In this document: one piece after another, positions 8,822 to 8,849 of the stretch
How the letters are laid out: each line of letters opens with the position of its first letter
Position numbering within the stretch: the first letter of the stretch is position 1
Origin: Candidatus Levyibacteriota bacterium
GTDB taxonomy: Bacteria; Patescibacteriota; Microgenomatia; Levybacterales; UBA12049
Reading direction: 5' to 3'
Assembly: GCA_039809285.1 (NCBI GenBank)
Contig: JBDHUU010000001.1
Coordinates: forward strand, 1 to 26,959
Length of the DNA stretch: 26,959 nt
Notes under the pieces: generated by a model
Told to the model about the DNA's origin: nothing
The model's database searches: none
Seen by the model: the letters and a program-made list of their open reading frames with translations, nothing else
Translations under genes and position numbers: made by a program

Positions 8822-8849
8822 ACGTCGTACAATAATACTTTTACGACGT
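8822..8849. other. Candidate dif-like tyrosine-recombinase core site (11-6-11)
   Basis: ACGTCGTACAA-TAATAC-TTTTACGACGT. Arms are 10/11 inverted-complementary. The left arm matches the B. subtilis dif XerC-side arm ACTTCCTAGAA at 8/11 positions (reference recalled). Confidence 0.6.

Follow-up and report, generated by a model that had tools for sequence, protein, structure and literature searches.

A conserved single-copy dif-like site linked to a Xer recombinase gene in a Levyibacteriota bacterium and its class

The window analysed here (26,959 nucleotides, forward strand) is the entire contig C1 of a draft genome of a Candidatus Levyibacteriota bacterium, a draft of 789 kb in 97 contigs that is 88.9% complete. 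An earlier note on this DNA had placed a dif-like element in the only long intergenic gap of the window, at a point on which the genes converge. The gap has been confirmed, at 8358-9190, and the convergence holds locally, with eight long ORFs on the + strand and one on the - strand to its left, and three on + and 14 on - to its right (8/9 and 14/17, respectively, pointing inwards), but not beyond the local scale. In relatives, the gene order on the left side is constant (TPR protein, YebC, membrane protein). The first gene (1-1452) was assigned by eye to the M17 leucyl aminopeptidases of the PepA family; in E. coli, PepA serves Xer recombination at the plasmid sites cer and psi as an accessory factor, and the presence of a PepA-like gene in the window is probably a coincidence. 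The features discussed below are the following:

8358-9190, no strand: non-coding gap around the core, 833 nt, the only long gap of the window, with blocks common to the order
about 8513, no strand: gap block ATACGAAA, shared at order level
8527-8576, no strand: gap block TTGAGGCTAAAA...ATCAAGCTAAAT, shared at order level
8631-8650, no strand: two TTTTCACR boxes, shared at order level
8822-8849, + strand: dif-like core, the 28-mer ACGTCGTACAA-TAATAC-TTTTACGACGT
8822-8832, 8833-8838 and 8839-8849, + strand: left arm, centre and right arm of the core
about 8976-8988, no strand: CCCTAYTATRGG-like block, shared at order level
9578-9588, - strand: extra arm-like 11-mer ATGTCGCACAA, perfect, inside the ORF 9191-9931 and 0.75 kb right of the site
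13850-13860, + strand: isolated arm copy ACGTCGCACAT, directly next to TTGACT, which resembles a -35 box, in the xer promoter
13935-14888, + strand: Xer-A, a gene for a Xer-family tyrosine recombinase (317 aa), linked to the site

The 28-mer has the 11-6-11 form of dif, with the near-perfect arms first described for it: these are complementary at 10 of 11 positions and are separated by the 6-bp spacer TAATAC. Both follow the form RYGTCGYA(C/A)AA, their outer eight bases being identical, and show a small conserved difference, C vs A at position 9. The XerC-side arm of B. subtilis gives a match at 8 of 11 positions, while the canonical XerD arm (TTATGTTAA-type) is absent from the site, as had been claimed, the right arm being TTTTACGACGT. 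When the draft was searched with the dif cores of E. coli and B. subtilis, even the best matches had 5 mismatches in 21 positions.

The geometry alone lies within chance, because the 789-kb genome contains 34 inverted repeats with this geometry and 10/11 or more matches; five of these are on contig C1, including one at 8548 in the same gap as the 28-mer. What exceeds chance is the conservation of the 28-mer in other genomes. Its uniqueness, proposed as a check, holds in the draft even when 5 mismatches are allowed, and the many dispersed copies named as a sign against a dif were not seen. Scattered polar copies of the arms were likewise not found in the draft, where GTCGYACAA occurs only three times. 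Within the window, the arm pattern RYGTCGYAMAW has 4 matches vs 0.16 expected; the arm-like 11-mer at 9578-9588 is followed by TATTAT.

When the gap was compared by BLAST with 40 relatives, only the 28-mer was matched, once per genome and with 93-100% identity, in 32 of the 40. The carriers include other families of the order, and the flanks are unmatched outside the genus. A scan of the class with a 24-nt core pattern (up to 2 mismatches; 401 sampled genomes, among them the unpublished G108, on which nothing is claimed separately) found the pattern in 169 genomes, and the reversed pattern used as a control gave 2 matches. The search for the motif in related genomes that the earlier note had suggested has therefore yielded class-wide conservation, with a single copy in 168 of the 169 carriers and two in the remaining one, G327. 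The two sites of G327 lie on two contigs, each beside a xer gene; on one contig the conserved left flank is complete as well, whereas the second contig ends 0.8 kb left of its site. Duplication of the site in this genome was considered and rejected, the two separate contigs looking like a mixed bin.

The arms GTCGYACAA and TTTTRCGAC are invariant, and variation is found at the central positions 13-16. Positions 7 and 22 were counted by hand over the 150 matches listed in the class scan, and the pairs among these were C/G 72, C/A 42, T/A 15, T/G 19 and A/T 2. An RNA stem on either strand would thus carry a mismatch in 13-28% of the species. The two positions vary independently, which argues for two equivalent half-sites in the DNA as the object of constraint, rather than an RNA stem.

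This bears on the reading of the palindrome as a transcription-factor operator, for example of the YebC/PmpR-family protein encoded on the left, or as the hairpin or terminator of a non-coding RNA. Such a role would account for the palindromic form of the site, for the conserved left synteny with YebC and the membrane protein, and for the other conserved blocks and terminator-like hairpins of the gap. However, besides the missing covariation between positions 7 and 22 in the hand count, Rfam at gathering and permissive thresholds and ARAGORN returned nothing credible in the gap, no T-run follows the stem and no gene start adjoins the site; moreover, the strand switch of a polar word at the site, the half-site in the xer promoter and the hybrid phage junction, all described below, would be left unexplained. 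A search for transcript evidence turned up only one DNA run and two very small RNA runs. We regard an operator or RNA function as very improbable.

The gap also contains a cluster of boxes to the left of the site (8505-8650; the same gap in loci L003 and L012-L030), all in one orientation. Relative to the flanks of 21 loci, the gap motifs are enriched about 7- to 70-fold, with about 20-fold for TTTTCACR and GAGGCTA and about 7- to 20-fold for the boxes of this cluster. TTTTCACR boxes lie on the top strand in 40 cases and on the bottom strand in 2 over the 21 loci, a perfect DnaA box (TGTGGATAA) is present in ten loci, and ATACGAA and GAGGCTA repeats are also found. This cluster beside the dif-like core is DnaA-box-like in sequence. 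An oriC at the gap, which such a cluster would suggest, was rejected, since it is at dnaA, located on other contigs, that skew and polar word both switch.

The recombinase gene always lies to the right of the site in relatives, at 0.66-5.1 kb, with variable genes in between. The gene content of this interval (8850-13934 in the window, and its counterpart in relatives) varies among genomes, whereas the left flank is fixed: trehalase-like, transaldolase-like and DUF4230-like genes and orphans were recognised by eye, and some genomes have none. The stretch may be an insertion hot spot.

The product of Xer-A scores 260 bits with the XerD profile, 255 with XerC and 215.7 with XerA, all below the equivalog cut-offs, the last being a near miss of less than 5 bits (cut-off 220); with the XerS model it reaches 142 bits vs a cut-off of 267. 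The closest solved structures are XerD (1a0p) and XerA (4a8e), XerH being a weak structural-sequence match at 46 bits. The catalytic R-K-H-R-H-Y residues are present, as read by eye from the alignment with solved relatives. The nearest protein clusters belong to Minisyncoccota, the formal name of the CPR/Patescibacteria phylum, and to Roizmaniibacteriota.

Upstream of the gene, the arm copy at 13850-13860 has counterparts in relatives: a comparable half-site upstream of xer was flagged in 14 of 17 loci, and one more, with 3 mismatches, was seen by eye in L012. These half-sites are located either next to the -35 box or in the spacer between it and the -10 box, and may be of the left-arm or the right-arm type. 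The copy in the window is probably an autoregulatory half-site, and Xer-A very probably binds the arms of the 28-mer.

A further line of evidence comes from chromosome polarity. All 7-mers were scanned for a strand flip at the site, pooling up to 100 kb on each side in nine genomes, and AGGGGAG was the top word, far ahead of all others, with 74 copies on the top strand and 5 on the bottom strand to the left, and 6 on top and 71 on bottom to the right. The check for polarised KOPS-like octamers that the earlier note had suggested has led to this 7-mer, which converges on the site in 9 of 9 genomes; its strand switches about 0.2-6 kb or less from the site, the innermost copies lying 0-6 kb to the left and 0.2-9 kb to the right. 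Controls were negative: the flip score is 4.7 at the true site vs at best 2.2-2.5 at pseudo-sites 37-45 kb away. The polarity is independent of gene strand, being kept inside genes of either strand. In the window, eight copies are present vs 2.4 expected:

1179, 4086, 4164 and 4356 (span 1179-4362), + strand: four AGGGGAG words left of the site, all pointing towards it
9047, 14969, 24999 and 26622 (span 9047-26628), - strand: four AGGGGAG words right of the site, all pointing towards it

The genome encodes an FtsK of 718 aa with a gamma domain (95.9 bits), and we infer that AGGGGAG is read by this protein. In G260 and G002, two relatives, the polarity of the word flips at dnaA and at the site, and no flip is seen at the GC-skew shift point.

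[quoted passage not shown] The skew extremum that the earlier note had expected at the site was not borne out. At the gap, raw GC skew in the window drops to about 0 from values of about +0.1/+0.2 without becoming negative, and the sign of GC and GC3 skew is unchanged at the site in the window and in eight relatives. Both skews invert at dnaA in G002 and G006, which shows that the method works in this lineage. The identity of the site with the replication terminus was rejected on the GC3 skew of the eight relatives. The angular distance between site and dnaA is about 70-150 degrees in complete relatives, and 70-240 kb separate the site from the skew shift of G260 and G002; in G242 and G217 no skew inversion was found within 80 kb of it. 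The skew terminus thus lies elsewhere, but no canonical dif was found there in G260 or G002, nor anywhere in the draft. The layout of G260 is as follows:

G260: complete, 1,084,101 bp, with dnaA at 1056 kb and its antipode at 514 kb
707.9 kb: the site, about 116 degrees from the origin
about 470 kb: end of the strong positive skew
about 470 to 708 kb: near-zero skew
708 to 1056 kb: strong negative skew

The skew shift of G260 is near the antipode of the origin; that of G002, at about C2:660 kb, is separated from the site by 70-142 kb. In 5 of the 6 genomes tested, the best single step of raw skew occurs 0-5 kb from the site. Since the sign is kept, the site marks a discontinuity of skew and not an inversion. 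The opposite end of the zero-skew zone of G260 carries no second copy of the site.

Between the site and the antipode, GC3 skew is near zero and patchy over 170-240 kb, with sharp steps at both ends. Such stretches were noted in G260 (C1, 470-708 kb) and in G002 (C2:540-710 kb, C4, and C3:272-292 kb), and within those of both genomes AGGGGAG still points to the site. They may be due to a leaky fork barrier at dif or to heavy rearrangement of the zone. A different picture was seen in G242:C1 (801,504 bp, complete), where GC skew is strongly negative (-0.17 to -0.50) throughout the 560 kb sampled, a stretch that spans dnaA (210 kb), and where AGGGGAG does not flip at dnaA; its origin seems to lie away from dnaA, within 400-604 kb, outside the 560 kb sampled.

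The site is also found in 19 IMG/VR contigs, none of which carries the flanking genes of the window and only one of which, L169, has a recombinase-like match, a weak one. In L174 (IMGVR_UViG_3300013105_000220), a 5.3-kb element at 2225-7564 has a gene for a rolling-circle Rep of the G2P type, and no recombinase was recognised there. Two sites in direct orientation border the element, one of them full and the other a hybrid in which the left arm and the centre are kept and the right arm has diverged. As judged from sequence, this is the layout left by phages that borrow the host Xer. The inovirus-like element of L174 is inserted at its CPR-type dif beside a murG-like gene, and Zot-like inovirus proteins are encoded by L176, L178 and L183. 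This evidence comes from viral contigs of other, related lineages, whose site centres are slightly different; in the window itself no phage integration was observed. Elements of the L174 type could be a marker family for phages of CPR bacteria.

The use of the site by phage-like elements, its location off the terminus and the variable cargo between site and xer would all be expected of a site that serves mainly for attachment, or as a local recombination module, with no role in dimer resolution. A host would, however, gain nothing from holding a pure attB unchanged and at one copy throughout a class, and the chromosome-wide convergence of the polar word and the FtsK gamma domain fit segregation; we hold such a restricted role to be improbable.

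Whether one enzyme or two act at the site is a separate matter. The draft yielded a single tyrosine recombinase. Of 40 relatives, 36 (among them six of the eight that belong to the same genus) carry a second Xer-like gene, Xer-B, of about 290 aa and located near the origin; so do five relatives that were checked individually, four of which are complete genomes. The single-recombinase system proposed by the earlier note is therefore unproven, because the draft is 88.9% complete and most relatives carry this second gene. Xer-B orthologues share 62-89% identity, Xer-B is 27% identical to Xer-A and XerC/XerD-like at 173 bits, and no conserved site was seen beside it. As for the marks of single-enzyme systems, the linkage of gene and site and two arms that fit one protein were found here, whereas Xer-A does not reach the scores of the curated XerS or XerA families.

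In classical dif sites the arm sequences differ, so that XerC and XerD can be distinguished. A true dif served by Xer-A together with the origin-proximal Xer-B, in a heterotetramer of the XerC/XerD kind, would agree with the wide occurrence of Xer-B orthologues, with the XerC/XerD-like score of Xer-B and with the conserved asymmetry of the arms at position 9; the layout, moreover, matches that described by Kono et al., with xerC near dif and xerD near the origin (PMC3025954). Against such a pair stand the identity of the outer eight bases in both arms, the use of either arm type as half-site in Xer-A promoters, and the low identity of Xer-B to Xer-A together with its lack of a visible linked site. 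We consider the two-enzyme arrangement a possible, though not the likelier, state of affairs: the symmetric outer arms and the promoter half-sites of either type favour one enzyme on both arms.

Several known systems resemble the one outlined here. With XerCD/dif and FtsK/KOPS of E. coli, and the B. subtilis dif with SRS, it shares a 28-bp 11-6-11 site present once per chromosome, a Xer with the full catalytic set, an FtsK gamma domain, a G-rich polar word converging on the site, and exploitation by integrase-less filamentous phages. It differs in that there is no TTATGTTAA-type arm for XerD, the two arms being nearly identical, in the polar word itself, and in the distance of 70-240 kb between site and skew shift. 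The archaeal XerA/dif system is alike in its 11-6-11 form with similar arms and in the frequent linkage of the recombinase gene to the site. Archaeal dif lies at 122-144 degrees from oriC, not at 180, with short polar sequences skewed towards it (PMC5357621, a review), so the off-centre site with polar words is a further likeness, as is the near miss of Xer-A on the XerA model (215.7 vs 220). Unlike archaeal XerA, which acts without FtsK, the present system has an FtsK with a gamma domain, and it further differs in its bacterial host, in the higher scores of Xer-A on the XerD and XerC models and in the second Xer paralogue of relatives.

Similarly, XerS/difSL of streptococci and lactococci and XerH/difH of epsilon-proteobacteria have a gene linked to the site and an FtsK-guided context and, as is possibly the case here, one enzyme for both arms. 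In contrast, difSL has 31 bp with an 11-bp centre, Xer-A falls far below the XerS cut-off (142 vs 267 bits) and matches XerH only weakly (46 bits), and the xer gene here is not always directly adjacent to the site. Finally, the phage-like elements recall the IMEX phages CTXphi, VGJphi and TLCphi at Vibrio dif1, as small rolling-circle or Zot-encoding elements with, in L174 (the one element closely examined), no recombinase and a dif accompanied by a hybrid with one arm and the centre; unlike the Vibrio phages, they come from uncultured hosts.

Taken as a whole, the 28-mer is in all likelihood the dif site of this chromosome, that is, the core at which Xer would carry out strand exchange between sister chromosomes. 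The basis in this analysis is the conservation of the site, its copy number, its linkage to xer, the polarity switch, the half-site and the phage insertion. The original proposals of a dif-like Xer target and of the Xer encoded at 13935-14888 as binder of its arms have both gained support from the class-wide single-copy conservation, the promoter half-site, the convergence of the polar word and the phage insertion. Xer binding, cleavage, FtsK dependence and the use of one enzyme at the 28-mer are predictions. In the mechanism that we propose, each 11-bp arm RYGTCGYA(C/A)AA would bind one Xer monomer, both arms most likely being bound by the recombinase encoded 5 kb away, which would also repress its own promoter through the single arm copy; the strands would be cleaved at the edges of the 6-bp centre, and strand exchange between sister chromosomes would resolve dimers, the septal translocase FtsK being steered to the site, through its gamma domain, by AGGGGAG from both chromosome arms.

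With the site off-centre, the polarity map of this chromosome does not coincide with its fork-meeting point. A broader and tentative reading, which we would not yet favour as a whole, is that segregation polarity has been uncoupled from replication in this class of CPR bacteria. The site and the convergence of AGGGGAG would then lie about 70-150 degrees from the origin, and one fork would pass dif and travel 70-240 kb more before meeting the other. The near-zero skew with sharp steps, seen in several families, would fit a leaky fork barrier at dif, for which the conserved flanking boxes, the DnaA-box-like ones included, are possible binding sites, and a single self-regulating Xer would act on both arms.

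CPR bacteria account for a large share of bacterial diversity and, to our knowledge, the maintenance of their chromosomes is almost unstudied. In agreement with the initial suggestion of a dif type undescribed for the lineage, the literature searched yielded no account of a dif in CPR bacteria. A defined dif and its polar word would provide an anchor for orienting and checking CPR assemblies and for spotting inserted filamentous phages, and both are concrete substrates for biochemistry with a small set of Xer and FtsK proteins. Furthermore, a consistent offset between dif and the meeting place of the forks would offer a natural test of whether dif must sit at the replication terminus.
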